Origin: Bacteroidales bacterium
GTDB taxonomy: Bacteria; Bacteroidota; Bacteroidia; Bacteroidales; UBA3663
Assembly (NCBI GenBank): GCA_045545875.1
Contig: JAZQBS010000153.1
Span: 6,530 to 70,529, forward strand
Length of the DNA stretch: 64,000 bases
Reading direction: 5' to 3'
The notes beneath the pieces were generated by a model that had not been told where the DNA came from, did not search any database, and saw only the letters and a list, made by a program, of their open reading frames with translations. Shown here one piece after another: positions 261 through 59,290 of the stretch (positions within the stretch are counted from its first letter, which is position 1; each line of letters opens with the position of its first letter). A program made the position numbers and the translations under genes.

Positions 261-423
261 TAAGGGATTCTAAGGGACATTAAGGGATTCTATGAGACAT
301 TAAGGGACGCTTCTCTCGGACGTGACCGAAAGGAAACAATGTTTCTTGGGACCCATTCTCTTGAGGCGGAGGTAACGTCCCCTAATATCCCTTAATATCC
401 CCTAATATCCCTTAATATCCCTT
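261..423. repeat. Inverted pair of phased heptamer arrays around a 70-bp core: 5x TAAGGGA (261,271,281,291,301) and 5x TCCCYTA (378,388,398,408,418), exact 10-bp period
   Basis: Read directly. The arms are reverse complements in the 7-nt core only, and the 3-nt spacers alternate (TTC/CAT; C/T), giving a 20-bp super-period. The innermost pair is GGGACG/CGTCCC. Confidence 0.9.
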
Positions 424-12610: not shown

Positions 12611-12636
12611 TTCGAGATAATAAAAGGACACTTAGC

Positions 12637-13992
12637 ATGAAACATTATCACAAATTACTGATAGGACTGGTAAGCCTGGCTCTGATCGTTTGTTCGTGCG
12701 GAGGGACGCACGAGCAAACGAACCAAGGGGAAGGCGAGACCATCAAACTGAGTGCCGACGAACTGCTCGACCTTGTGCAGCAACAGTGCCTGAACTACAT
12801 GTGGGAAGGCGCTGACCCAACTTCGGGACTGGCCTACGAGCGTATCCACCTCGATGGCATCTATCCATCGAACGACAAGACGACAATCACCACGGGTGGT
12901 TCTGGCTTCGGTGTTGCCGGCCTGATTGTAGGCATGGATCGCGGTTGGATCAAACGTGCAGAAGGCGTGGCCCGACTGACCCGCATCGTCGATTATCTGG
13001 CAAAGGCCGACCGCTATCACGGCGTCTGGTCGCACTGGATGGACGGACCATCGGGCAAGACCATTCCCTTCGGCACGAAGGACAATGGCGGTGACCTGGT
13101 GGAGTCGTGCTTCCTGATGCAGTCGCTGCTTTGTGTGCGCCAATATCTGAAGGCCGATGTCGAAGCAGAAGCCTACGTGATCGACAAGATCAACGAGTTG
13201 TGGAAGGCCATGGAGTTTGACTGGTACACCCGTGGAGGACAACACGTGATCTATTGGCATTGGAGTCCTGACTACGGCTGGGAGATGAACTTCCCGCTGG
13301 AGGGCTACAACGAGTGCCTTATCACCTACATCCTCGCTGCAGCAAGCCCGACACACTCGGTGCCTGCCGAATGCTATCACGAGGGTTGGGCACGCAGCGG
13401 CGGCATCAAGAGCGATGCAGCACCCTACGGTTATCCGCTCGACGTGAAGCACAACGGAGCCGAGACGAATGGAGGTCCACTGTTCTGGGCACACTACAGC
13501 TGGATCGGACTTTGTCCGAGGGGCCTCAAGGACCAGTATGCCGACTATTGGCACGTCACAGCCAACCACGCCCTTGCCAACTATGCCTACTGCGTAGATA
13601 ATCCCAAGGGCTACAAGGGGTACGGCAAGGATTGCTGGGGGCTTACCGCCAGCTATTCGCCCGATAGTTATGCAGCCCATGCACCCAACCAGGACCTTGG
13701 CGTAATCACGCCTACTGCTGCCCTTTCGAGCTTCCCCTACACACCCGAACAGAGCATGGCAGCCTTGCGTCACTTCTATTCGATGAAGTCGTTCCTTTGG
13801 GGCAAATATGGCCCGTACGATGCCTTCTCGCTTGATCCTTCGTGGACACTCCCTCGTTATCTGGCCATCGATCAGCTGACCATTGCGCCCATGATTGAGA
13901 ACTATCGCACAGGGTTGCTCTGGATGCTCTTCATGAGCTGTCCGGAGGTGCAGGAAGGATTGAAGAAACTGGGGTTTACGGTAAATAATTAA
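12637..13992 (+). CDS. Lipoprotein of the PF10091 glycoamylase-like family (GH144 endo-beta-1,2-glucanase-like)
   Basis: Lipobox (VCSC). I recognise the sequence stretches ...TTGGSGFGVAGLIVG..., ...YHGVWSHWMDG... and ...GGDLVESCFLMQSL... as this family. Not verified by search. Confidence 0.6.
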   Translation: MKHYHKLLIGLVSLALIVCSCGGTHEQTNQGEGETIKLSADELLDLVQQQCLNYMWEGADPTSGLAYERIHLDGIYPSNDKTTITTGGSGFGVAGLIVGMDRGWIKRAEGVARLTRIVDYLAKADRYHGVWSHWMDGPSGKTIPFGTKDNGGDLVESCFLMQSLLCVRQYLKADVEAEAYVIDKINELWKAMEFDWYTRGGQHVIYWHWSPDYGWEMNFPLEGYNECLITYILAAASPTHSVPAECYHEGWARSGGIKSDAAPYGYPLDVKHNGAETNGGPLFWAHYSWIGLCPRGLKDQYADYWHVTANHALANYAYCVDNPKGYKGYGKDCWGLTASYSPDSYAAHAPNQDLGVITPTAALSSFPYTPEQSMAALRHFYSMKSFLWGKYGPYDAFSLDPSWTLPRYLAIDQLTIAPMIENYRTGLLWMLFMSCPEVQEGLKKLGFTVNN

Positions 13993-14000
13993 GTTGTTTT

Positions 14001-14136
14001 GGAGTTAACGGGAGTTAGCGCTTCGCGCGGGAGTTAACGGACGAATGTGTCTTGTGTCCCGATATTTATAAGGCGAAGGTATCGTCCGTTAACTCCCAAT
14101 AACTTCCAATAACTCCCGATAACTCCCAATAACTCC
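14001..14136. repeat. Inverted pair of phased arrays: GGAGTTA at 14001, 14011, 14030 and 5x TAACT(C/T)C at 14090-14130 (exact 10-bp period), with central hairpin ACGGACGA(14037)/TCGTCCGT(14082)
   Basis: Read directly. The architecture matches 261-423 but uses a different heptamer. Confidence 0.9.
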
Positions 14137-14166
14137 CAATAAATTATAAATAATAATTTTTTTGCT

Positions 14167-16437
14167 ATGAAAAAAACAATATGGGGTTTGGCCCTGTTGC
14201 TGGGCCTTGCTAGTTGTTCGGGCAACAAGTCGGACAACGAGATGGATGCATTCATCAACGACCTGATGGGCAAGATGACCCTTGAAGAGAAGTTGGGCCA
14301 GCTGAATCTGCCGGTGACCGGTGACATCGTGACCGGTGCTGCACAATCGAGCAACGTGGCCGAAAACATCCGTGCAGGACGCGTTGGCGGACTCTTCAAC
14401 CTGAAGGGAGCCGATCGCGTGGCAGAATTGCAGCGCATTGCCGTCGAAGAAAGCCGCCTCGGCATACCTCTGATCTTCGGCATGGACGTAATCCATGGTT
14501 ATGAGACCGTCTTCCCCATTCCTCTGGGCCTTTCGTGCACCTGGGACATGGATGCCATCGAGCGTTCGGCACAGATAGCTGCCCAAGAAGCCACAGCCGA
14601 TGGCATCTGCTGGACGTTCAGCCCGATGGTTGACATCTGCCACGATGCACGCTGGGGACGTATCTCGGAAGGCAATGGCGAGGATCCCTTCCTCGGGAGC
14701 CGCATCGCCGAAGCAATGGTGCGCGGCTATCAGCAGGGCGACCTCACAAGCGCCAACACCATGATGGCATGCGTGAAGCACTTTGCCCTCTATGGAGCAC
14801 CCGAGGCAGGACGTGACTACAATACCGTCGATATGAGCCTTTGGCGCATGTACAACGAATATTTCCCACCCTACAAGGCAGCCTGCGATGCAGGTGCGGG
14901 CAGTTACATGGCCAGCTTCAACATCGTCAACGGTGTGCCTGCAACGGGTAACCGCTGGCTTCTGACCGACGTGCTGCGCAACCAGTGGGGCTTCGACGGC
15001 TTCGTAGTGAGCGACTACACAGGCATTGCCGAGATGGTGAACCACGGCATGGGCGACCTGAAGGAGGTGAGTGCCCTGGCTCTGCATGCAGGACTGGACA
15101 TGGACATGGTGAGCGACGGCCTGGTAGGCACACTTGCCGAGAGCCTCAAGGAGGGACGTACCACGCAGGCCGATATCGACCAGGCTTGTCGCCGCATACT
15201 TGAAGCAAAGTACAAGCTCGGACTCTTCGAAGATCCTTATCGCTACTGCGACACCACTCGCTATGCCAAGGAGGTCTATACCGAAGAGAATCGTCGTGAG
15301 GCACGCAGGATTGCAGGTGAGAGCTTTGTGCTCCTGAAGAACGAGGGCAACATCCTGCCTTTGAAGCGCCAAGGCAAGATTGCACTCATCGGTCCTTTGG
15401 CCAACACCCGTGCCAACATGCCAGGTACCTGGAGCGTAGCTGCCACCAGCGAACGTTACAGCACCGTGGTAGAGGGTCTGAAGCGCGCTGTGGGCGACAA
15501 GGCTCAGGTGCTCTATGCCAAGGGCTGCAACCTGATGTACGACGCTCAGGCAGAGGCTGATGCCACCATGTTCGGACGCGATATGCGCGACAATCGCAGC
15601 GATGCAGCTATGCGTGCCGAGGCACTTGCCATCGCACGTCAGGCCAACGTCATCGTCTTTGCAGGGGGAGAGGCTTCGGAGATGGCAGGCGAATGTTCGA
15701 GCCGTGTAGGCATCGAAATGCCCGATGCACAGCATGACCTACTAGTCGAGCTAGTGAAACTCGGCAAGCCCATCGTGCTGCTCAACTTCTCAGGTCGTCC
15801 GATGATCCTGAATTGGGAAACCGAGCACATCCCCGCCATCCTTGAGGTATGGTTCGGTGGCAGCGAGGCTGCTGATGCCATTGCCGATGTCGTCTTCGGA
15901 GACGTCGTTCCTTCGGGCAAACTCACCACCAGCTTCCCACGGCATATCGGACAACTGCCGATGAGCTACAGCTATTACAACACAGGTCGTCCTGTGCAGG
16001 CTGATGCCTTCGTGAAGTTCCAGAGCTGCTACATGGACGTGAGCAACACGCCGCTTTATCCCTTCGGCTATGGTTTGAGCTACACCACCTTCAGCTATTC
16101 GCCTGTCACCCTAAGCAGCAACGAGCTGACGAAGGATGGCGAGATTGAGGCAAAGGTGACAGTCAGCAACACCGGCAAGTGTGAGGGAACCGAGGTCGTA
16201 CAGCTTTATATCCGCGACCTCGTGGGCAGTGTGACCCGACCTGTGAAGGAACTCAAGGGCTTCAAGCGCGTTACCCTCAAGGAGGGCGAGAGCTGCAACG
16301 TGACATTCACCATCGATGCCAATCTGCTGAAGTTCTACAACGGCGAGCTTGAATATGTGTGCGAGCCGGGTGAGTTCGAGGTGATGATCGGCACGAATAG
16401 TGCGGATGTGCAGAGTGCTAAGTTCGCGCTGAAGTGA
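14167..16437 (+). CDS. bglX: Periplasmic GH3 beta-glucosidase (BglX-like lipoprotein)
   Basis: Lipobox (LASCSG) and GH3 hallmarks ...MTLEEKLGQLN..., ...GRISEGNGEDP..., ...GFVVSDY..., with a C-terminal fibronectin-like domain. Confidence 0.9.
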   Translation: MKKTIWGLALLLGLASCSGNKSDNEMDAFINDLMGKMTLEEKLGQLNLPVTGDIVTGAAQSSNVAENIRAGRVGGLFNLKGADRVAELQRIAVEESRLGIPLIFGMDVIHGYETVFPIPLGLSCTWDMDAIERSAQIAAQEATADGICWTFSPMVDICHDARWGRISEGNGEDPFLGSRIAEAMVRGYQQGDLTSANTMMACVKHFALYGAPEAGRDYNTVDMSLWRMYNEYFPPYKAACDAGAGSYMASFNIVNGVPATGNRWLLTDVLRNQWGFDGFVVSDYTGIAEMVNHGMGDLKEVSALALHAGLDMDMVSDGLVGTLAESLKEGRTTQADIDQACRRILEAKYKLGLFEDPYRYCDTTRYAKEVYTEENRREARRIAGESFVLLKNEGNILPLKRQGKIALIGPLANTRANMPGTWSVAATSERYSTVVEGLKRAVGDKAQVLYAKGCNLMYDAQAEADATMFGRDMRDNRSDAAMRAEALAIARQANVIVFAGGEASEMAGECSSRVGIEMPDAQHDLLVELVKLGKPIVLLNFSGRPMILNWETEHIPAILEVWFGGSEAADAIADVVFGDVVPSGKLTTSFPRHIGQLPMSYSYYNTGRPVQADAFVKFQSCYMDVSNTPLYPFGYGLSYTTFSYSPVTLSSNELTKDGEIEAKVTVSNTGKCEGTEVVQLYIRDLVGSVTRPVKELKGFKRVTLKEGESCNVTFTIDANLLKFYNGELEYVCEPGEFEVMIGTNSADVQSAKFALK

Positions 16438-16466
16438 TGCGGAATCTTTTTAAAAGATGAAAAATG

Positions 16467-16596
16467 GATTTAACGAAGATGGTGCTGCACGATGGCAGCA
16501 CTGATGTATAGGCTGTAAACGCCATCTGAAAGCGAGCTTTCATCTGACGCTTCCATCCCATCCATCACCCTTTCAGGGCAACATCTTCGTTAAATC
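16467..16596. repeat. 15-bp perfect inverted repeat (GATTTAACGAAGATG / CATCTTCGTTAAATC) closing an about 130-nt segment that contains two further local hairpins
   Basis: Arms lie at 16467-16481 and 16582-16596. The inner hairpins are GTGCTGC-N5-GCAGCAC and TGAAAGC-GA-GCTTTCA. Confidence 0.7.
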
Positions 16597-16601
16597 GAAA
16601 A

Positions 16602-16609
16602 TATCTTTG
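16602..16609 (+). promoter_or_regulatory. -7 box TATCTTTG, putative promoter for the 16801 gene (about 185-nt leader)
   Basis: Exact TAnnTTTG match, but no clear -33 TTTG. Confidence 0.4.
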
Positions 16610-16680
16610 AAAAATCCTAAAAAATTATGCCTATCCCCCCCTCTTTTGAGATAAAAATCTGATCGACCTTATTATTTTAA

Positions 16681-16711
16681 CGTTAATGACCGTATAATGA
16701 GCCGTTAATGA
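16681..16711 (+). promoter_or_regulatory. Three direct repeats CGT(T/A)TAATGA at 16681, 16691, 16703 in the leader of the 16801 gene
   Basis: Read directly. Confidence 0.35.
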
Positions 16712-16800
16712 TCATTAATACAGTTGAAACGCGGCTTTGTGAGGTTATTGTTATGGTTTGATTAAACCTGAGGGCGAAAAGAGAGTCTAAAGGGGCGGAT

Positions 16801-22365: not shown

Positions 22366-23949
22366 TTAAAAGCACTGGGCGACGAGGGCATCGGCGCAGT
22401 GACAGCCATCCATAGCCGACGAAACGATGCCGCCTGCATAACCTGCACCTTCGCCACAGGGATAGAGACCGCGCACGGTGGGATGGCAGAACGAAAGCCT
22501 GTCGCGCGGGATGCGGACGGGTGACGAGGTGCGCGTCTCGGTGCCCACAAGCAAAGCTTCGGAAGTGAGGAAACCATGCGCACGACGACCGAAGTAGCGG
22601 AGGCCCTCCTGCATACGTGCACTGATGAACCTAGGCAGCCAGAAGTGCAACGGACTAGCCACGACACCCGGAGTGTAGGACGAAGCAGGGAGGTCGGCCG
22701 ACAAGCGACCATTGACGAAATCGGTCATACGTTGGGCAGGTGCTACCTGTGTGCGTCCACCATTGAGCCAACACTGATGCTCGATGGCCTCCTGAATAGC
22801 CATCATCGCCAAGGGACTACCGGGGTCGATGTCGAGATGGAGCTGGCTGGCGAGAAGCGGGATGTCGTCGACACGAATCTCGGTGACCATAGCCGCATTG
22901 GCCCAACGACCACCACGAGAACTGGCGCTCATACCATTGACGACAACCTGGTTTGAACTCGTAGCCGAAGGAACGATGACTCCACCGGGACACATACAGA
23001 AGCTATAGACACCACGATCGTCGGCCTGCGTGACGAAACTGTATTCGGCAGGAGGCAGGTACTGACCCCTACCCTCCTTGGAATGATACTGGATCTGGTC
23101 GATGAGGGTCTGAGGGTGTTCCAAGCGACAACCGATGGCCAGACCCTTGGCTTCGATGAGAATGCCTTCGTCGTGAAGCATCGTGTAGATATCGCGTGCA
23201 GAATGACCTGTGGCGAGGATGACGGGGCCCAAGAACTCACGTCCATCGAGGGTGGTGACACCAACCACCTTATCGTCGGAAAGGATCAAACGAGATACAA
23301 TGGTCTCGAAATGAATTTCGCCGCCACAAGCTAGAATGGTCTCGCGAATATTCGAGATGATGGAGGGAAGCTTGTCGGTGCCTATATGAGGATGAGAAGC
23401 ATCGAGGATGCCCGTGTCGGCTCCGAACTGGCACAAGCCTTCGAGCACACCCTGCACATTGCCACGCTTTCTGGAACGCGTGAAGAGCTTGCCATCGGAG
23501 AATGCCCCTGCCCCACCTTCGCCAAAGCAATAGTTGGAGTTGGGGTCAACGCGTTGCTCGCGGGTGATGAGGGCGACATCGCGACGACGATCGCTAACAG
23601 GGCGACCACGCTCGATAAGGATGGGACGAACGCCCAGTTCGATGAGCCGAAGGGCCGCGAACAGTCCACCGGGACCCGAGCCGACAACGATGGCCTGATG
23701 GGCATGGGAAGGCAATTCTTTATAAGCGACCTTGTGGAAAGTCTGCTGTGGAGGCTCCTCGTTGATATACAGATCGACGTCGAGCTGCACCATCACCTGA
23801 CGCTGACGTGCGTCGATGCTGGTGTGCTTCATACGCAGGCCGCGCAATGCCTTTCGACTGATGGCAAACTCGCGGCAGATCTGCGCCTCGAGTTGCTCAG
23901 CATCGCGCCATACCTGCGGGAGTACACGTATTTTGATATTCTTGATCAT
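22366..23949 (-). CDS. FAD-dependent oxidoreductase (COG2509-like uncharacterised dehydrogenase)
   Basis: Dinucleotide-binding motif ...IVVGSGPGGLFAAL... The ATG at 23949 overlaps the radA TGA (ATGA). Confidence 0.75.
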   Translation of the reverse strand: MIKNIKIRVLPQVWRDAEQLEAQICREFAISRKALRGLRMKHTSIDARQRQVMVQLDVDLYINEEPPQQTFHKVAYKELPSHAHQAIVVGSGPGGLFAALRLIELGVRPILIERGRPVSDRRRDVALITREQRVDPNSNYCFGEGGAGAFSDGKLFTRSRKRGNVQGVLEGLCQFGADTGILDASHPHIGTDKLPSIISNIRETILACGGEIHFETIVSRLILSDDKVVGVTTLDGREFLGPVILATGHSARDIYTMLHDEGILIEAKGLAIGCRLEHPQTLIDQIQYHSKEGRGQYLPPAEYSFVTQADDRGVYSFCMCPGGVIVPSATSSNQVVVNGMSASSRGGRWANAAMVTEIRVDDIPLLASQLHLDIDPGSPLAMMAIQEAIEHQCWLNGGRTQVAPAQRMTDFVNGRLSADLPASSYTPGVVASPLHFWLPRFISARMQEGLRYFGRRAHGFLTSEALLVGTETRTSSPVRIPRDRLSFCHPTVRGLYPCGEGAGYAGGIVSSAMDGCHCADALVAQCF

Positions 23950-25433
23950 TTGAACAAAAGACGGAAAGCCTCGTCGACACGCGCGACGGGACAAACCTGG
24001 ATCTTGAGCGTCTTTACATCGATGCTCTTGAGTGCAATATTTGGAATGAGAATACGTTCGAAACCAAGTTTCTCGGCCTCACGGATACGTTGCTCCAGGC
24101 GAGCCACAGGGCGTATCTCGCCCGACAGACCCACTTCGCCCGTCATACACGTAAGCGGAGGAAGCGGCATATCCAGGTTGGAAGAAAGGATGGCAGCCAT
24201 CACCGCCAGGTCCATGGCAGGGTCGGACACACGCAGACCGCCGGCAATGTTGAGGAAGACATCCTTCTGCGCCAATTTGAAGCCTACACGCTTCTCGAGG
24301 ACGGCGAGCAGCATGTTGAGACGACGCTGGTCGAAGCCCGTGGTGGAACGCATGGCGGTGGCATAGACGCTGGTGCTGACGAGAGCCTGCGTCTCGATGA
24401 GGAAGGGACGCATACCCTCGATGGCAGCGGCAATGGCGACGCCTGAGAGGTCCTTGTGATCGGAGTTGAGCAGGAGTTCGGAGGGGTTGGTCACCTGTCG
24501 GAGACCCGTGCCGAGCATCTCGTAGATGCCGAGTTCGGAGGTTGATCCGAAACGATTTTTGATGGCACGGAGGATGCGATACATGTAATGCTGGTCGCCT
24601 TCGAACTGGAGGACGGTATCGACGATGTGTTCGAGTACCTTCGGGCCTGCCAAGGAGCCTTCTTTGGTGATGTGACCGATGAGGATGACGGGCGTGCCCG
24701 ACTCCTTGGCAAACTTGAGGATACGGGCGGCACATTCGCGCACCTGACCAACGCTGCCTGCACTCGACTCGAGGTCATCGGTGGCGATGGTCTGGATGGA
24801 GTCGATGACGAGGATGTCGGGCTCGACATTGGCGACGTGGGTGAAGATGGCGTCGAGATTGGTTTCGCAGGCGATGTAGACGGAGTCGAGGGAAGGGGCA
24901 GCCAAAGACGGCTGCGGTGAAAGGTTCGAAAGGTTCGAGGGGTTCGAAAGGTTCGAGGGAAGTGAGGGGTTTGAAGCAAGGCGGGTGGCTCGGAGCTTGA
25001 GCTGGTAGGCGGATTCTTCGCCTGAACAATAGAGGACCTTATGGTCGTGAATGTTCATCACCGTCTGGAGGACGAGGGTGGATTTGCCGATGCCTGGGTC
25101 ACCACCCAGCAGAACCAAGGAACCGGGTACAAGACCACCGCCCAACACACGGTTGAGTTCGTCGTCGTGCATATCGATGCGTTGCTCTTCGCGCGCCTCG
25201 ATTTCGGAGAGACGGCGAGGACGCTCGTTCTGCCCAGGAAGTCCTAATGTTCCCCCATGACTCCACTGCACGCCACCCGACTTGCGGGAAGCCTTGCCAA
25301 TGGCACCCGTTTGGGTATCGACAATCTCTTCGACACAGGTGCCCCATTCGCCACACGACGGACATTTGCCGAACCACTTGGGCTCTTCGCAGCCACAGGA
25401 ACTGCAGAAATAGGCTGTCTTCTTCTTTGCCAT
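23946..25433 (-). CDS. radA: DNA repair protein RadA/Sms
   Basis: N-terminal zinc finger CSSCG...CPSCGEW, Walker A GGDPGIGKST, KNRFG motif, and a Lon-like C-terminal domain. Confidence 0.95.
   Translation of the reverse strand: MAKKKTAYFCSSCGCEEPKWFGKCPSCGEWGTCVEEIVDTQTGAIGKASRKSGGVQWSHGGTLGLPGQNERPRRLSEIEAREEQRIDMHDDELNRVLGGGLVPGSLVLLGGDPGIGKSTLVLQTVMNIHDHKVLYCSGEESAYQLKLRATRLASNPSLPSNLSNPSNLSNLSPQPSLAAPSLDSVYIACETNLDAIFTHVANVEPDILVIDSIQTIATDDLESSAGSVGQVRECAARILKFAKESGTPVILIGHITKEGSLAGPKVLEHIVDTVLQFEGDQHYMYRILRAIKNRFGSTSELGIYEMLGTGLRQVTNPSELLLNSDHKDLSGVAIAAAIEGMRPFLIETQALVSTSVYATAMRSTTGFDQRRLNMLLAVLEKRVGFKLAQKDVFLNIAGGLRVSDPAMDLAVMAAILSSNLDMPLPPLTCMTGEVGLSGEIRPVARLEQRIREAEKLGFERILIPNIALKSIDVKTLKIQVCPVARVDEAFRLLFK
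24923..24976. repeat. 6 x 9-bp array GGTTCGARR (24923, 24932, 24941, 24950, degenerate 24959, 24968) in-frame inside radA
   Basis: Read directly. It encodes ...SNPSLPSNLSNPSNLSNLS..., a segment absent from the E. coli RadA sequence as I remember it. Confidence 0.85.
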
Positions 25434-39186: not shown

Positions 39187-39258
39187 CAACTCCATCTATA
39201 ACGCAAGATTGTCGCGAAATGGAATAAGCGGGATACAAGATTCCCTTTCTATAATCGA

Positions 39259-39712
39259 GGCATAGCCATTTTGCGCCAAGGTTGGGTATTCTACTATAGA
39301 AGCATACCCTTTCTTGGCCAAAATTGGTTATGCCTCTTTCGAATAAAGCACTCTGACGGCCGACAGAGTGCTTTATCCAGTCGAAGTATACCCTTTCTTA
39401 GCCGAAATTGGTTATGCTACTATCTGCGAAAGCACTCTGACAGCCGCCAGAGTGCTTTATCCAACCGAGGTATACCCTTTCTTGGCCGAAATTGGTTATG
39501 CTACTATCGCCGCATACCCTTTCTTGGCCAACTTTGGTTATGCTCCAATCGGCGAAAGCACTCTCACGGCCGACAGGATACTTGCTTCCATCGGAGAATG
39601 ACCATTCTTAGCCAAAAAAGGTTATGCCTCATTCGAAAAAAGCACTCTGACGGCCGACAGAGTGCTTTATTCGTTCGCGGCATAACCAATCTTGGCGCAG
39701 ATTGGTTATACG
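39259..39712. repeat. Mosaic tandem array with 84-bp period of two alternating hairpin modules (A: GCATACCCTTTCTTGGCCRAAATTGGTTATGC; B: AAAGCACTCTG-ACGGCCGA-CAGAGTGCTTT)
   Basis: A copies at 39302, 39386, 39470, 39512 and about 39598. B copies at 39345, 39429, 39555 (degenerate) and 39639. A terminal perfect palindrome lies at 39682-39709. Confidence 0.9.
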
Positions 39713-51107: not shown

Positions 51108-53459
51108 TTATCGTATTCCGTAGAGGTAAGCGAGGAGCATCATCTTGCCACGCATCGTCTCTCGTGGTGTGAACTCGCCATTTACCCACATGTAACGCTG
51201 ATTGAAATAGGATTCCTGACGTGGCCAATTTTCTGTCCATGAGGGATAGCATCGATTGAGCAGAATACGTGCATCGCCGCCATTATCGGGCGACCACACT
51301 TCGGTGCCGTTGAAAGGAGTTTGGCCAGGATGACTCTCGGGAGTTCCATCGTTTCGTCCGGTAGTATAAACGTCGGTAAGGTGACGCTGGCCCAAGCCGG
51401 TCATTTCAACGATATTTCCTGGATTACGTCCCAATGCCCAACCAGCCTCGAGATATAGAGCACGTTCAAGTTGCTGGCGACGTGCCTTGGTATCGGCGAT
51501 GTAATGTGCCAGGACCACAAGATGCAGATTCTGTGACGTCTGCCACCGCGCATCGTTGGCGGCGCGACGCGAAGGACGCTGATCGACAAAGTTGACGTTG
51601 TAGGCATCGGCATGCTTATTGACGCTCGACTTTATATTGACATAGAGTTCGGGATAATGGCGTTCGCGTGGGCAGCAGAGATAAGCAGCAGTTGCATAGA
51701 ACTGGAAGTAACCTACCTCGCCCGCCTGGAAGACATTGGTGACATTGGCGGTAAAGAATCCCTGGCGTCCCTTATTGAAGAGCGGTGTATCGCCGGTCGT
51801 GATCATGCTTTCGGCTGCAAGGATATCTTCCCATTCCCTTTCGCCCGTGACATTATATAGGAAGGCAGCAGCCATCTGACGGAAGTCACGGCCTCGCATA
51901 CTGATGCTTCCGATATCCTGCTTGTCGTCAAGTTGAGAGTTTTCCTGCCGCGAAGCATATCGAAATGCACGTATTGCCTCTTGCGTGTAATAGTTGCATA
52001 GCGAGTCATTGCCCTGGATGCGAAGTGCCTCAGCCGTGATGGCGCAGTTGGCGGCATTGGCCCAAGCGGCCATCGTAGTGCAACCCGCCTGAAACATAAT
52101 GGTCCATTCGGACGAAGGATTGGTGACACCCTGCGAGTAACCTTCGCCATCGCGTATGCTCAAGAAGAAATCCACCTCATTGCGAGCCTCGTCGATGAGG
52201 TCGGGCAAACCATTCCCACTCTCACGAATGCCAAGGTTATCCTCTGCCAAACGTCCACCCGTAAGAATATAGGGCAGCAACTGATCGTAGATGTTGGAGA
52301 CATGGGCAAGGTGACGGTCCCAGTCAAAGGCATCGGAATGCCCACCCTTTACATCGACAGCCACAGGGTTGCCAGACAGACGATGTTGCCAGAAGATAGA
52401 CGTGAGAGCCGGCTTGAAGTGAGGTTCATCCCAAACGTCGGTACGCAATGCCCTCCATTCGGGATCCCATGGCTGGAAATCGGTCTTGTAGATGGTAAAG
52501 CCCTTCGGATCGACCTCGGGGATAAACTGAGGCTGACGTGGCACGGGAGTGACGTGCTCCGGGTCGATGGGTTCACCTAAACGCATGTAATAATAGCCGC
52601 GAAGTGAATAACGGTAAGGTTGATAATATATTTCGGAGTTGACATCGAAGTCCATACTGCAACCTACATCCTCAACAACAAGACGATAACGACCAGGTGC
52701 AGATACCTTGAAATCGACATTCCACACATCACTACCGACAAGATTCTTCTGACCTGCCTCATTGGCTGAAGCCGAAGCTGGTAACCAGAAGCGCACAGTT
52801 CCCACAGCCTGTTTACGACGTGTATTCACATTATAGAGCCATACCTTTTTGCCTTCATAAACCTTGTAGTCACGTTGCCCACCATCACCAAGCCACATAT
52901 AAAGATCGGCAGCCTTCACTGTTTCGGCAGGACTATATCCCAAGATATTGACATGCACGGCCTCGGACTGCGAGGTCCAGATATCGTACTTCACAGAAGC
53001 GGTGCTATGGTCACTGCCAAGACCTTCTGGAATATTGACCTTATAGGTGCAACCCTGTCGCATGGATTGAGGCAACTGCAGGAAGAGCCAATGGTCGAGT
53101 TCGGAGGCAAGAGTGTGATCCGTGTTCATAGGTTTGCTCTTCCGATGGATGGCCTTTGGTGAAGACAAAGCGAAAGACTTATCATCGGGAGAAGAGACTT
53201 GCCATAATGCCGCTTGGGAAGCTAATGCAGCATCGAGACGAGGTCCAAAGACGAGGAGAGTGTCATCGCCATCAGCAAAACTATGTCCCAAATATGCACT
53301 GGGGCCAGTGGCATCATCGCGATAACGAACTTCGCCATCGCGGAAATGAAGCATCAGATAATCCTTGTCAACCACCTGAATGCCAATGAGCCGATTGGCA
53401 AAAGTACTGGAAGATACAAGGAAAGAAAGGAATGTAATTAGGATTAATGAACGTCTCAT
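51108..53459 (-). CDS. GH9-like glycoside hydrolase (Ig-like CelD_N-type domain + alpha/alpha-6 barrel)
   Basis: Signal peptide from the ATG at 53459. ...YRYSLRGYYYMRLG... and ...GGHSDAFDW... resemble the GH9 FYxxQRxG and GGWxDAGD motifs. The family call is from memory. Confidence 0.5.
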   Translation of the reverse strand: MRRSLILITFLSFLVSSSTFANRLIGIQVVDKDYLMLHFRDGEVRYRDDATGPSAYLGHSFADGDDTLLVFGPRLDAALASQAALWQVSSPDDKSFALSSPKAIHRKSKPMNTDHTLASELDHWLFLQLPQSMRQGCTYKVNIPEGLGSDHSTASVKYDIWTSQSEAVHVNILGYSPAETVKAADLYMWLGDGGQRDYKVYEGKKVWLYNVNTRRKQAVGTVRFWLPASASANEAGQKNLVGSDVWNVDFKVSAPGRYRLVVEDVGCSMDFDVNSEIYYQPYRYSLRGYYYMRLGEPIDPEHVTPVPRQPQFIPEVDPKGFTIYKTDFQPWDPEWRALRTDVWDEPHFKPALTSIFWQHRLSGNPVAVDVKGGHSDAFDWDRHLAHVSNIYDQLLPYILTGGRLAEDNLGIRESGNGLPDLIDEARNEVDFFLSIRDGEGYSQGVTNPSSEWTIMFQAGCTTMAAWANAANCAITAEALRIQGNDSLCNYYTQEAIRAFRYASRQENSQLDDKQDIGSISMRGRDFRQMAAAFLYNVTGEREWEDILAAESMITTGDTPLFNKGRQGFFTANVTNVFQAGEVGYFQFYATAAYLCCPRERHYPELYVNIKSSVNKHADAYNVNFVDQRPSRRAANDARWQTSQNLHLVVLAHYIADTKARRQQLERALYLEAGWALGRNPGNIVEMTGLGQRHLTDVYTTGRNDGTPESHPGQTPFNGTEVWSPDNGGDARILLNRCYPSWTENWPRQESYFNQRYMWVNGEFTPRETMRGKMMLLAYLYGIR

Positions 53460-53497
53460 GATGATTTTAAGTGGAATAATTAACAGTAACATTATCT

Positions 53498-53577
53498 TCT
53501 AGAGTATCTAGATGATCTAGAGCTTCTAGAGTATCTAGATTTTCTAGATTTTCTAGAGCTTCCAGAGAGCATCTAGA
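53498..53577. repeat. 9 x about 9-bp tandem array with palindromic core TCTAGA (53498, 507, 516, 525, 534, 543, 552, degenerate 561, 572)
   Basis: Read directly. It fills the 137-bp gap between the GH43 stop and the GH9-like start. Confidence 0.9.
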
Positions 53578-53596: not shown

Positions 53597-54586
53597 TCAG
53601 AAGGGATCAGAGATAACGACGAGCTTATCGCCACTCAAATCAACTTCGAAAAGATGAGGAACGCGGATATAACGACCATTCTGATTGTAGTGACTGTGAC
53701 AGCTCAAAAGCAGACGTCCCTCAAAGTCGCGGAACAACATACCATGTCCGAAATTTGGAGGTGTGATGGGCTTCTCTTCCTGAATCCACGGCCCAGCAAG
53801 TGTCCCTGACTCGGAATAAGCGACACCCTGCGTATAAACATCATAGACCCACGACGTCCAGATCATGCCCAGGCGTCCCGTACCTGTTCGGAAGAGATAT
53901 GGGCCATCGGTAACCTTGTTGGGATGTTCTCCATCCATATCCTTCTCCTTGCTCCAAGGACTTTCCTTCGCACGGAAGAGGATTCGTGGCTCACCTATTG
54001 TTCCACTGAGGTCATCCTTCAGTCGAATGGCTTCCATCGTACCATTCCAGTTCTGCAGCCATTCGCCACAATAGATCATATAGGGATAGCTATCGGTATC
54101 AACCCAAAACGTGCCATCAAGCGTGGGTTGATCGGCTCTTAAATAAGCAGGATCGCCAAAGAGTCGATAGGGACCATCGGGATAATCGCTGACAAGAACC
54201 TGAGAAGCTCGACGTGGAATAACGTTACCACGCACAGAATCAATGCGAACAGCATTGTTGGTGAAGGTGGCAAAGTAATAGTATTTGCCCTGATACGGAT
54301 GGAGTTCGGCAGCCCAAATCATTGGACGTGGGCCCATCCACGACGTCGAGTCAATATCTACCACATTGTAGGGGCCAGTCCACATTTCCAGGTCACGACT
54401 TTTCCAAAGCATACCACCTGTGCCCGTCATATAATAAATATGAGAGGCCGTATCAGGCAAGATGCAAGGGTCGCTTAGTATAATGGAGTCACGAGGCACG
54501 GTACGCACCTGGAAGGGACGACGCTGACGCTGTGCCACAGCAGTAAACGTCAGTAACGAAAGGAGCAGAATAATAAAGTGTTTCAT
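53597..54586 (-). CDS. GH43 family glycoside hydrolase (single propeller domain)
   Basis: Signal peptide, ...LSDPCILPD...YYMTGT... and ...WAAELH... Confidence 0.8.
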   Translation of the reverse strand: MKHFIILLLSLLTFTAVAQRQRRPFQVRTVPRDSIILSDPCILPDTASHIYYMTGTGGMLWKSRDLEMWTGPYNVVDIDSTSWMGPRPMIWAAELHPYQGKYYYFATFTNNAVRIDSVRGNVIPRRASQVLVSDYPDGPYRLFGDPAYLRADQPTLDGTFWVDTDSYPYMIYCGEWLQNWNGTMEAIRLKDDLSGTIGEPRILFRAKESPWSKEKDMDGEHPNKVTDGPYLFRTGTGRLGMIWTSWVYDVYTQGVAYSESGTLAGPWIQEEKPITPPNFGHGMLFRDFEGRLLLSCHSHYNQNGRYIRVPHLFEVDLSGDKLVVISDPF

Positions 54587-58299: not shown

Positions 58300-58469
58300 T
58301 TAATCCTTTTAAAATTACAATCAGTGAATCGTAACGTTTGAATTTTATTGCCTGCAAAGATAGTTGTATTTTTCGAAATAAACAAATTATTAGTGGGAAA
58401 TTTTCGTTTTCAGGCGAAATTTCCCACTTTATGCGAACGATTGAAATCTGTGATATGAGATTAAGAGGG

Positions 58470-58530
58470 GGTTCGAAGGGTTCGAAAGGTTCAAAGGGTT
58501 CGAAAGGTTCGAGGGGATGAAGGGTTCAAT
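58470..58530. repeat. About 7 x 9-bp tandem array GGTTCGARR (58470, 479, 488, 497, 506, then degenerate), palindromic core TTCGAA
   Basis: Read directly. It is intergenic except that its last degenerate unit contains the stop codon of the 58526-59290 gene. Confidence 0.9.
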
Positions 58531-59290
58531 CTCTCTTCTTCACCTGCGGGAGGAATTCAGCCTCAAGCTTGGCATAGTTCTCGACAAACCACTTGTGCCA
58601 ATAGCGTGTCATCTCACCATGGGTCTGGCCCATGATACCTTCGTCGTACGACACACGCTTGCCAATCTCGATGCACTCTGGTCCTGGATTCAGGCAGAAA
58701 TCCTTCTTGGGCAGCAGATAGCCGGTGCCGAAGATAGTGACGGGAACAATGTCGCACTTCAGCTGTTCGGCCAGATGAAAAGCGCCACGACGGAACTTAT
58801 GTACCTGGCAATCTTCCGAGCGGGTGCCTTCGGGGAAGATGAGCACCGAATATCCACGTTTCATACACTTGCTGATGTGTGCCAGCATCTCTTCCATCGA
58901 CATCGTGGCCGGGAAGAAATCGGCAAACCTTACCACATGGCCGTAGATCTTGCTATCCCACACCCATTGTCCCGTCATCACAATAAGACGATTGGTGAGC
59001 ATCAGCGTTGCAGGAAGGTCGAGCAGCGACTGATGGTTGGCAATGATAAGTGCAGGCTTCTTGAAGGTCTCTTCATGCGGGTTGCGCAAGATCGGGTTCA
59101 CCTTGGTCACGCAGTGATAGGAGAAGAAGCGGCAGAACCTGCGTATATGTCGATGCAGACGATAACGCACACGTTCATTATCGCCAAACCAGGCATAGAT
59201 CCTGGCCAGGGGGGCAATGATGAAGAAAATGTATCCGAGCAGGATGCCAAATTCAAGATATGTTATTATAAGTCTGAACCAACGTGGCAT
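58526..59290 (-). CDS. Lysophospholipid (1-acyl-sn-glycerol-3-phosphate) acyltransferase family protein
   Basis: HX4D motif NHQSLLD and ...FPEGTRS... Confidence 0.8.
   Translation of the reverse strand: MPRWFRLIITYLEFGILLGYIFFIIAPLARIYAWFGDNERVRYRLHRHIRRFCRFFSYHCVTKVNPILRNPHEETFKKPALIIANHQSLLDLPATLMLTNRLIVMTGQWVWDSKIYGHVVRFADFFPATMSMEEMLAHISKCMKRGYSVLIFPEGTRSEDCQVHKFRRGAFHLAEQLKCDIVPVTIFGTGYLLPKKDFCLNPGPECIEIGKRVSYDEGIMGQTHGEMTRYWHKWFVENYAKLEAEFLPQVKKRD

Follow-up and report, generated by a model that had tools for sequence, protein, structure and literature searches.

What kind of element places two inverted arrays of a short repeat between consecutive genes of a polysaccharide utilization locus (PUL) is the question raised by this locus. 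The stretch of DNA analyzed, called the window below, comprises 64,000 nt (64 kb) of a Bacteroidales bacterium contig (JAZQBS010000153.1), and the arrays, GGAGTTA on the left and TAACTCC on the right, lie between a GH144-like gene and a GH3 gene. The element in this gap is called E2, its sister element at 261 to 423 is called E1, and L-numbers denote fetched comparison loci. The explanation that we favor, with a probability of about 0.6, is that E2 is one copy of a dispersed, modular, non-coding repeat family resembling MITEs (miniature inverted-repeat transposable elements) and BOX elements, which is non-autonomous and is carried within the operon transcript. The copies compared show a family that is dispersed, modular, and strain-variable, with a near-invariant 17-nt core site and inverted arms composed of arrays with a 10-bp period. 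As judged from its sequence, it appears to be a previously uncatalogued, dispersed intergenic family of rumen-type Bacteroidales, and literature searches found nothing specific on a described Prevotella or rumen repeat of this design.

Organization of E2 in the GH144-GH3 gap

E2 extends over approximately 13997 to 14154, and its heptamer arrays span 14001 to 14139, about 140 nt; all of its features are given on the plus strand. As an earlier reading made from the letters alone (the sequence-only reading) had proposed, the element fills the 174-nt gap between the stop codon of the GH144-like gene at 13992 and the GH3 start codon (ATG) at 14167. The upstream gene (12637 to 13992, plus strand) encodes a GH144-like protein of the endo-beta-1,2-glucanase family (Pfam Glycoamylase, PF10091), and the first heptamer begins 8 nt past its stop codon. 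The downstream gene (14167 to 16437, plus strand) encodes a GH3 beta-glucosidase with a lipoprotein-type signal peptide, and its start lies 27 nt beyond the last repeat unit. The host operon is a PUL on the chromosome, and genes for a hybrid two-component regulator, for SusC, and for SusD precede GH144 and GH3 in it.

Exact counting in the window bears out the three left copies reported earlier, with GGAGTTA occurring exactly three times, at 14001, 14011, and 14030, all within E2. The right array had been described as five copies with a 10-bp period; the period holds, but only four units are exact TAACTCC (14090, 14110, 14120, and 14130, all the occurrences in the window), whereas the fifth, at 14100, is TAACTTC, with one mismatch. 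Tandem Repeats Finder assigns the segment from 14090 to 14142 a period of 10 with 5.3 copies and 90% matches, and a phased three-unit pattern gives four overlapping matches in E2 versus none in 100 dinucleotide-preserving shuffles. The inner stem noted earlier is also present, although its length is not 8 bp: it is a perfect 16-bp inverted repeat with 100% complementarity, formed by GGGAGTTAACGGACGA (14029 to 14044) and TCGTCCGTTAACTCCC (14082 to 14097).

The left arm (14001 to 14044) is composed of GGAGTTAACG at 14001, GGAGTTAGCG at 14011, a mini-hairpin or degenerate unit GCGCTTCGCGCG at 14018 to 14029, and GGAGTTAACGGACGA at 14030 to 14044. Its heptamers are spaced by 10 and then 19 bp, and the 19-bp interval contains the degenerate GCGCT..CGCGCG unit, which is common to L049 and L024. 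From 13993 on, the left side reads, in order, GTTGTTTT GGAGTTAACG GGAGTTAGCG CTTCGCGCG GGAGTTAACGGACGA. A TTTT run just outside the arm (13997 to 14000) probably belongs to the element because the non-orthologous copy L024 has such a run at its left edge as well; in the predicted fold, the E2 run pairs with a right-hand AAUAAC. Between the inner repeats lies an asymmetric core of 37 nt (14045 to 14081), which reads ATGTGTCTTGTGTCCCGATATTTATAAGGCGAAGGTA and is homologous to the cores of E1 and all other family members. The 17-mer AGGCGAAGGTATCGTCC (14071 to 14087) always adjoins the G-poor TCCC arm. The right arm (14082 to 14139) begins with TCGTCCGT and continues with five 10-bp units, TAACTCCCAA, TAACTTCCAA, TAACTCCCGA, TAACTCCCAA, and TAACTCCCAA. 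The tail AAATTATAAATAAT (14141 to 14154) is regarded as part of the element and not as local spacer because it is shared with L024; from the tail to the GH3 ATG (ending at 14166), the sequence reads TAAATTATAAATAATAATTTTTTTGCT.

A shared core in dispersed copies

The sequence-only reading held that E2 has the same architecture as E1 and that the two share GGACG/CGTCC at the arm-core junction. The junction motif is real but uninformative alone, with GGACG occurring 84 times in the window. The common architecture is borne out by a homologous asymmetric core of about 45 nt (AATGTTTCTTGGGA-CCCATTCTCTTGAGGCGGAGGTAACGTCC in E1 and AATGTGTCTTGTGTCCCGATATTTATAAGGCGAAGGTATCGTCC in E2), which includes a 17-mer common to both. 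E1 (261 to 423, plus strand) consists of five TAAGGGA units, a core with an extra 29-nt module, and five TCCC-type units, and it takes up all of the spacer from a gene stop at 256 to the TTG start of a HemW-like gene at 426; Tandem Repeats Finder detects both 10- and 20-bp periods in it. The 17-mer AGGCGRAGGTAWCGTCC, which lies at 364 to 380 in E1, has two exact matches in the window (E1 and E2), and chance matches at up to three mismatches average 1.4. In the seven copies first aligned, it is invariant as AGGCG[A/G]AGGTA[A/T]CGTCC, and family-wide it is near-invariant as AGGCG[A/G]A[G/T]GTA[A/T][C/T]GTCC, with L036a and the second half-units of both L037/L002 and L036b each differing at one base. 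The core outside the 17-mer is only about 75% conserved across copies, and the family core pattern is ATGT.TCTTG.G.CCC N9-10 AGGCGAAGGTA. An extra core module of about 30 nt (CTTCTCTYGGACGTGACCGARAG..AACA) is common to E1 and L024. A core profile recovers all members at E values of 1e-12 to 1e-19 and finds only E1 and E2 in the window; with nhmmer (--max), this profile detected no further diverged copies in the window and all 925 kb of fetched loci.

The suggestion that more junction-bearing elements should exist proved right once the core was used as the query. The core-only pattern was scanned over one genome per species (about 185,000 species) and then over metagenome contigs. Among the species genomes, true members are found in five rumen-type Bacteroidales metagenome-assembled genomes (MAGs), namely, RUG418, RUG465, RUG11585, RGIG6006 (sheep omasum), and a reindeer MAG, and the other 17 matches are chance occurrences without arrays. 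The metagenome contigs added L023/35/39, L024, L030/46, L031/38, L036 (two elements), L037, L040, and L048, bringing the total of the core search to about 13 independent loci in rumen-type Bacteroidales MAGs and metagenomes. Copies are approximately 140 to 250 nt in size, have G-poor and C-poor repeat arms, and contain no plausible open reading frame (ORF). The anticipated family of shared design with a varying heptamer is what these loci present, with the same core flanked by differing arm repeats.

The arms are of at least three kinds. The commonest, TAAGGGAnnn / nnnTCCCTTA, is the E1 type; GGAGTTAnnn / nnnTAACTCC is found in E2, L049, and L024; and a left 7-bp TTAACAA array combined with right TAACTCC-type units occurs in L035 and in a unit nested inside L040. 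The sequence-only reading took the heptamer to be a specificity determinant, which, with regard to a binding protein, would be conjecture; all arm types have in common a period of 10 bp, two arms that complement each other, and GGGA/TCCC together with an AT-rich stretch. In TAAGGGA-type copies, neighboring units are 10 bp apart in 36 of 38 intervals on the left and in 33 of 37 on the right. The 3-nt stretches that separate the heptamers vary freely, and G accounts for 0.9% of right-arm units. Unit number differs even between orthologues, being 5 versus 8 in L004 and L019 and 5 versus 4 in E2 and L049, and the two arms are unequal in E2, L019, and L030. The arms are inverted complements of each other, at 16 of 16 positions in the E2 inner stem and at 65 to 85% over 45 nt in most copies. 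The modules also occur in other combinations: L048 consists of the core and right arm only, neither L048 nor L035 has an inverted left arm, and a tandem second copy of the 17-mer plus right arm is present in L037/L002/L036b, as is a nested unit in L040.

Copies at unrelated loci share 82 to 98% identity. L030 and L038 are 97.8% identical over 134 nt of the element, and their flanks are unrelated; one sits between two protein genes, and the other follows what we take, by eye, to be the 3' end of a tRNA gene. The right halves of L010 and L040 are 97.6% identical over 82 nt, with differing flanking genes. E2 and L024 share 81.7% identity over 115 nt, including the degenerate GCGCT(N2-3)CGCGCG unit and the tail AAATTATAAATAAT, and have different flanking genes, L024 lying between a 126-residue gene, presumably RidA/YjgF-like to judge from its C-terminal sequence, and a gene for a 349-residue lipoprotein.

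Copies in L010 (5575 to 5600 and 5722 to 5760, oriented), L040, L038, and L021 are bracketed by small hairpins, ACTCAAS-TTTCGCATGTGC / AAGTTGAGCACATGCGAAACTTGAG. In L010 and L040, these hairpins form an outer inverted repeat matching at 19 of 20 positions, and the flanks outside them differ. They could be palindromes of a terminator-like kind, or a longer composite element may have its true ends there.

Filled and empty sites in relatives

Comparison of the orthologous GH144-GH3 gap, proposed earlier as a check, reveals presence and absence of the element and not an unrelated spacer of similar length, and the outcome that the sequence-only reading had named as refuting the family was not observed. 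L049, whose GH144 protein is 96% identical and whose flanks are 94 to 95% identical at the nucleotide level, has a gap of the same 174 nt occupied by an E2-type element with four right units that is only 73% identical to E2; its core is nearer to the family consensus than that of E2. L056 is syntenic over 20 kb at 90 to 96% nucleotide identity (flanks, 93 to 96%), and its gap is 30 nt and reads TTAACAA TTAATAA TTAATAG TTAACAA. In L052 to L055 (84 to 92% nucleotide identity; flanks, 88 to 92%), the gap is 63 nt and contains about nine TTAAYAA units without the element, and in L050 (80% amino acid identity) and L051 (75%), gaps of 48 and 6 nt, respectively, also have no element. The presence of the element in the window and L049, its absence in L050 to L056, and the 73% identity of the element versus 94 to 95% for its flanks point to E2 being a derived insertion in the lineage of the window and L049 that varies among strains of the species-level cluster and evolves faster than its flanks. 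At the E1 site, the spacer between the same stop and start codons in the relatives L104 and L105 (HemW 90 to 91% identical) is about 200 nt in length, GC-rich, internally repeated, and unrelated. Of the features by which MITEs are recognized, the family shows small size (under about 500 bp) without coding capacity, inverted ends, dispersed copies, and both filled and empty sites.

An 8-bp repeat, TAAATAAT, that flanks E2 was considered as a target-site duplication and rejected, as its right-hand copy belongs to the tail shared with L024. Arrays of the 7-bp unit (TTAAYAA)n recur at gene ends, in the L052 to L056 gap, in L024 (13749 to 13769), and in L035 (193 to 213); they overlap the GH144 stop codon in relatives, form the left side of L035 and of the L040 nested unit, and may be either an insertion target or a component of the element. 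The gap between SusD and GH144 in close relatives (L053, 9825 to 10000; L056, 9923 to 10090) contains a different inverted-repeat element of about 150 nt, with arms of TATCACGAATT / AATTCGTGATA motifs around TGATGGCTTYGGTCAAGAC, and the corresponding gap of the window (12611 to 12636) is only 26 nt, an empty site. By its sequence, this element represents a putative second family of hairpin repeats, unrelated to that of E2 and likewise variable between strains within this operon.

Folding, strand, and orientation

The plus-strand RNA of E2 is predicted to fold into a long imperfect hairpin of -69.1 kcal/mol (z = -10.6), and the minus-strand RNA is predicted to fold at -60.2 kcal/mol (z = -7.3). 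Compensatory changes preserve the inner stem in a comparison of ten copies: at one pair, seven copies have GC, two have CG, and one has AU, and in the E2 type, the two outer pairs change from AU to GC and from UA to AU. Covariation lends almost no support to structure within the core. Pairing of the arms involves 7-bp blocks parted by mismatched 3-nt spacers. The mismatches are mostly A-C on the plus strand and become G-U on the opposite one, a bias toward pairs that are G-U-compatible on the minus strand of about 45 versus about 12 in the 11 copies with a correctly placed left junction (E1 and L004 excluded). Arm complementarity is maintained, and these data do not demonstrate a sense-strand mRNA hairpin as the selected form; complementarity could equally be kept by the requirements of a mobilizing enzyme or by template switching within quasi-palindromes.

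The copies also suggest a preferred orientation relative to genes. In 9 of 10 independent co-directional loci (E1, E2, L024, L037, L010, L035, L030, L038, and L048, with L021 reversed), the right arm faces the downstream start codon at a distance of 2 to 60 nt, a split with a two-sided binomial p of about 0.02. The left arm usually starts within about 10 nt of the upstream stop codon. L004/L019 and L036a lie between convergent genes.

Database searches and rejected classes

Rfam yielded nothing at the gathering threshold over the whole window, and E-value searches with E2 and L004 gave only weak generic hairpin (miRNA-precursor) matches, with E values of 0.003 to 0.03, far below the threshold. 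A distant-mode blastn search of a plasmid collection found no match to E2 or to a TAAGGGA-type copy. In viral contigs, a 15-base core pattern gave 39 matches, none of which is flanked by TCCC arrays, and a TAAGGGA x3 array pattern gave eight matches, all of them unrelated arrays without the core.

An intrinsic (Rho-independent) terminator was rejected, with no terminator-like site at E2 and A-rich sequence following the right arm; the left flank gives no U-tract on the opposite strand. TAnnTTTG, which we take to be the Bacteroidetes -7 box consensus, has no exact match on either strand inside 15 copies, only 7/8 matches such as TATGTTTC in the core being present. The only two exact matches, those of L024 and L036a, fall at the left edge or outside it, roughly 150 nt upstream of the 17-mer, and a sigma-70 scan gave no signal above shuffles. 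An invertible promoter of the Bacteroidales type was rejected on the fixed orientation of the core relative to the arms in all copies, including orthologous pairs across samples; the segment between the E2 inner repeats is, in addition, only 37 nt and has no exact TAnnTTTG. CsrA-type GGA arrays, DnaA boxes, and integron attC sites were set aside on motifs that misfit by eye and on the difference between the E2 and E1 units. Replication or partition iterons were rejected on the GH144 and GH3 flanks within a PUL and on the lack of any plasmid match or viral family member.

Mechanism and competing explanations

If E2 is a copy of a MITE/BOX-like family, such copies would spread as non-autonomous mobile elements, mobilized in trans by an enzyme that recognizes the core, the phased arm repeats, or both, and the arms would lengthen and shorten by slippage in 10- or 20-bp steps. 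E2 would be co-transcribed within the susC-susD-GH144-GH3 mRNA, where it would fold as a long imperfect hairpin, and it may be tolerated in the operon because it has neither a U-tract terminator nor a canonical promoter box. At most, its likeliest effect would be to alter, modestly and in a strain-specific manner, how the mRNA between GH144 and GH3 is processed or how stable it is.

Several findings weigh against this explanation. The flanks of 13 loci have no consistent direct repeat, and the difference between filled and empty sites extends over the entire AT-rich spacer. In the fetched loci, neither solitary arm arrays nor transposase genes were found, the large DNA scans having used the core only. 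Apparent copy density is low, with two copies in 64 kb, one strict-core match per genome in the five representative genomes, and none in the 21-kb syntenic loci. The minus-strand fold is 3 to 23 kcal/mol more stable than the sense fold in eight of nine TAAGGGA-type copies (E2 and L049 being about neutral in this comparison) because A-C mismatches on the plus strand become G-U, and this counts against selection for a sense-mRNA hairpin family-wide. Heptamers are far better conserved than the 3-nt spacers, in which the arms show no co-variation, and this fits protein recognition better than pure hairpin selection. The orientation bias, which is suggestive rather than compelling, would not be explained by a purely selfish element.

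The last two points lead to an account that we regard as unlikely, in which the element is a protein-binding regulatory cassette whose phased GGGA/TCCC heptamers would form sites on one face of the helix around an operator, promoter, or recombination core and control the downstream gene. Such a layout has analogues in the parC centromere of plasmid R1, where two clusters of phased repeats surround a core promoter, and in the heptad arrays bound by the omega repressor of pSM19035. The near-exact 10-bp spacing of the units, the conservation of heptamers next to free spacers, the near-invariance of the 17-mer within a more variable core, and the facing of the right arm toward a start codon would all fit. 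However, the arm repeats differ (TAAGGGA, GGAGTTA, and the 7-bp TTAACAA) while the core stays constant, so that one sequence-specific protein is unlikely to read all arms; the number of units varies freely even among orthologues (L004/L019 and E2/L049); no exact Bacteroidetes -7 box and no linked candidate gene for a binding protein are present; and the downstream genes (GH3, HemW, TrkA-like, and lipoproteins) are functionally unrelated. Also improbable in our judgment is a functional RNA, either an intercistronic hairpin that sets the GH144:GH3 ratio by RNase processing or 3'-end protection, the modes of action of the repetitive extragenic palindromic (REP) sequences, bacterial interspersed mosaic elements (BIMEs), and Correia elements, or an antisense small RNA from the minus strand. 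The very stable predicted plus-strand hairpin, the compensatory changes in the inner stem across subfamilies, and the position of E2 within an operon without terminator or promoter signals are consistent with the former, and the G-U-compatible mismatch bias and stabler folds of the minus strand would fit the latter. This account is countered by the lack of an Rfam match and of all but slight covariation in the core, by the absence of the left arm in L048 and L035, which indicates that the hairpin is dispensable, by the ability of template switching or transposase requirements to keep the arms complementary without selection at the RNA level, and by close relatives that have the same operon without the element and so do not need it for operon function.

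Far less probable than either is a replication-type iteron cluster or origin, or an in-place expansion of a local microsatellite. Short direct repeats with helical periodicity in two inverted clusters superficially resemble origin iterons, and relatives carry a simple 7-bp array at the site. The term iteron used by the sequence-only reading, if taken to mean initiator-binding repeats of a replicon, is not supported, since E2 lies in a chromosomal PUL with glycoside hydrolase genes on both sides, with no rep gene or origin context and no plasmid or viral relative. Local expansion is opposed by the same degenerate unit and tail at a different locus (L024) and by a core common to about 13 loci. 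A speculative variant that we consider doubtful is that the family is a bacterial counterpart of foldback elements, in which the 17-mer AGGCGAAGGTAWCGTCC would be acted on by a dedicated enzyme and the phased arms would serve as a protein-loading or DNA-bending platform or as a mobile operator array. The orientation bias would then reflect an element that delivers regulation to the gene it faces, and the half-units that start exactly at the 17-mer (L037 and L040) would be products of site-specific events.

Relationship to known repeat systems

In BOX elements of Streptococcus pneumoniae, which have the structure boxA-(boxB)n-boxC, the repeated module is 45 bp in length and central. The family described here resembles them in being composed of small, non-coding, dispersed intergenic repeats with variable tandem modules and partly complementary, hairpin-forming ends, often located inside operons, strain-variable, and without a known dedicated transposase. 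It differs in that there is no sequence relationship, the phylum is another, and 10-bp units build both arms around a unique core. Correia elements (NEMIS) of Neisseria have 26-bp terminal inverted repeats and a TA duplication, and the REPs of enterobacteria are 20- to 40-bp palindromes handled by RAYT transposases. Like E2, Correia/NEMIS and REP/BIME sequences are short inverted repeats between operon genes that are co-transcribed, fold into hairpins, and show strain presence and absence; unlike it, their arms are not phased tandem arrays, and no target duplication was found here. The resemblance to BOX, Correia, and REP elements is architectural only.

Foldback (FB) elements of Drosophila and other eukaryotes have long inverted arms of short tandem repeats with 10- and 20-bp periods. 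Arm length varies between copies and between ends, as it does here, where E1 has 10- and 20-bp periods and E2, L019, and L030 have unequal arms. FB elements are, however, eukaryotic, kilobase-scale, and sometimes coding, and the resemblance is architectural, with no evidence of an evolutionary link. Plasmid iterons and R1 parC likewise have short repeats that are clustered on either side of a core and spaced by roughly one helical turn, but they adjoin rep or par on a replicon and are served by one dedicated protein, whereas the present family is dispersed, lies in a chromosomal operon, varies in its repeat, and has no partner gene.

Within Bacteroidales, BrickBuilt of Porphyromonas gingivalis is a MITE with a tandem array that is present in multiple copies per genome and is always intergenic; it has a single central array of 23-nt units, small inverted-repeat ends, and demonstrated promoter activity (PMC4596501). 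In the family of E2, a unique core is instead flanked by two inverted arrays whose units are 10 nt in length, and the copies contain no exact TAnnTTTG. On these comparisons, its nearest relatives in behavior appear to be BOX, BrickBuilt, Correia/NEMIS, and REP/BIME, and in arm architecture, the eukaryotic foldback elements. The kind of object is ordinary because Bacteroidota are already known to be MITE-rich (PMC11602168). For the combination of a conserved core with complementary tandem-array arms built of a subfamily-specific unit, no description was found in literature searches.

The distribution of E2 indicates that small structured repeats cause turnover of PUL spacers between strains of this rumen lineage with 93 to 96% identity. 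Glycosidase expression could differ from strain to strain as a result of such turnover, which also provides a practical strain marker and poses a hazard for assembly. The family also offers a natural system for how inverted tandem arrays arise and are homogenized, with slippage and template switching set against selection by protein or RNA. Should a specific protein prove to recognize the core or the arms, Bacteroidales would have a new DNA-handling activity.

Other repeats in the window

The spacer between GH3 and the next gene, which encodes an outer-membrane beta-barrel protein, is unusually long (16438 to 16800, about 360 nt) and contains a short 11-bp array, CGTTAATGAGC, at 16681 to 16711. 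Alignment to relatives is broken over 16455 to 16675, which marks it as another variable spacer. A perfect tandem array with a 12-bp unit (TGCAGAATTCTA, 2.8 copies) and PstI- and EcoRI-like palindromes lies at 1612 to 1657, in the spacer that follows the HemW-like gene. A RadA/Sms-like gene (ORF 23946 to 25433, minus strand) contains an in-frame 9-bp array, GAAAGGTTC / GGGGTTCGA, at 24919 to 24960, which encodes ...SNPSLPSNLSNPSNLSNLSPQ... at about residues 158 to 172; orthologues have 470 to 484 residues versus 495 here, which suggests that the number of copies in a coding linker varies. An intergenic array of the same 9-mer family, with about 6.7 copies of GGGTTCGAA, is found at 58469 to 58527, just downstream of the stop codon of a minus-strand gene (58526 to 59290), so that this repeat unit is present in coding and spacer sequence alike. 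At 53496 to 53567, a 9-bp-period array of the palindromic hexamer TCTAGA (TTCTAGAGT, about eight copies) occupies the spacer of two minus-strand genes (53597 to 54586 and 51108 to 53492). Nested repeats with periods of 42, 84, 126, and 210 bp extend over 39256 to 39709, and they probably represent another dispersed repeat family because they are 71 to 76% similar to a region of the unrelated metagenome locus L039 (6844 to 7215).

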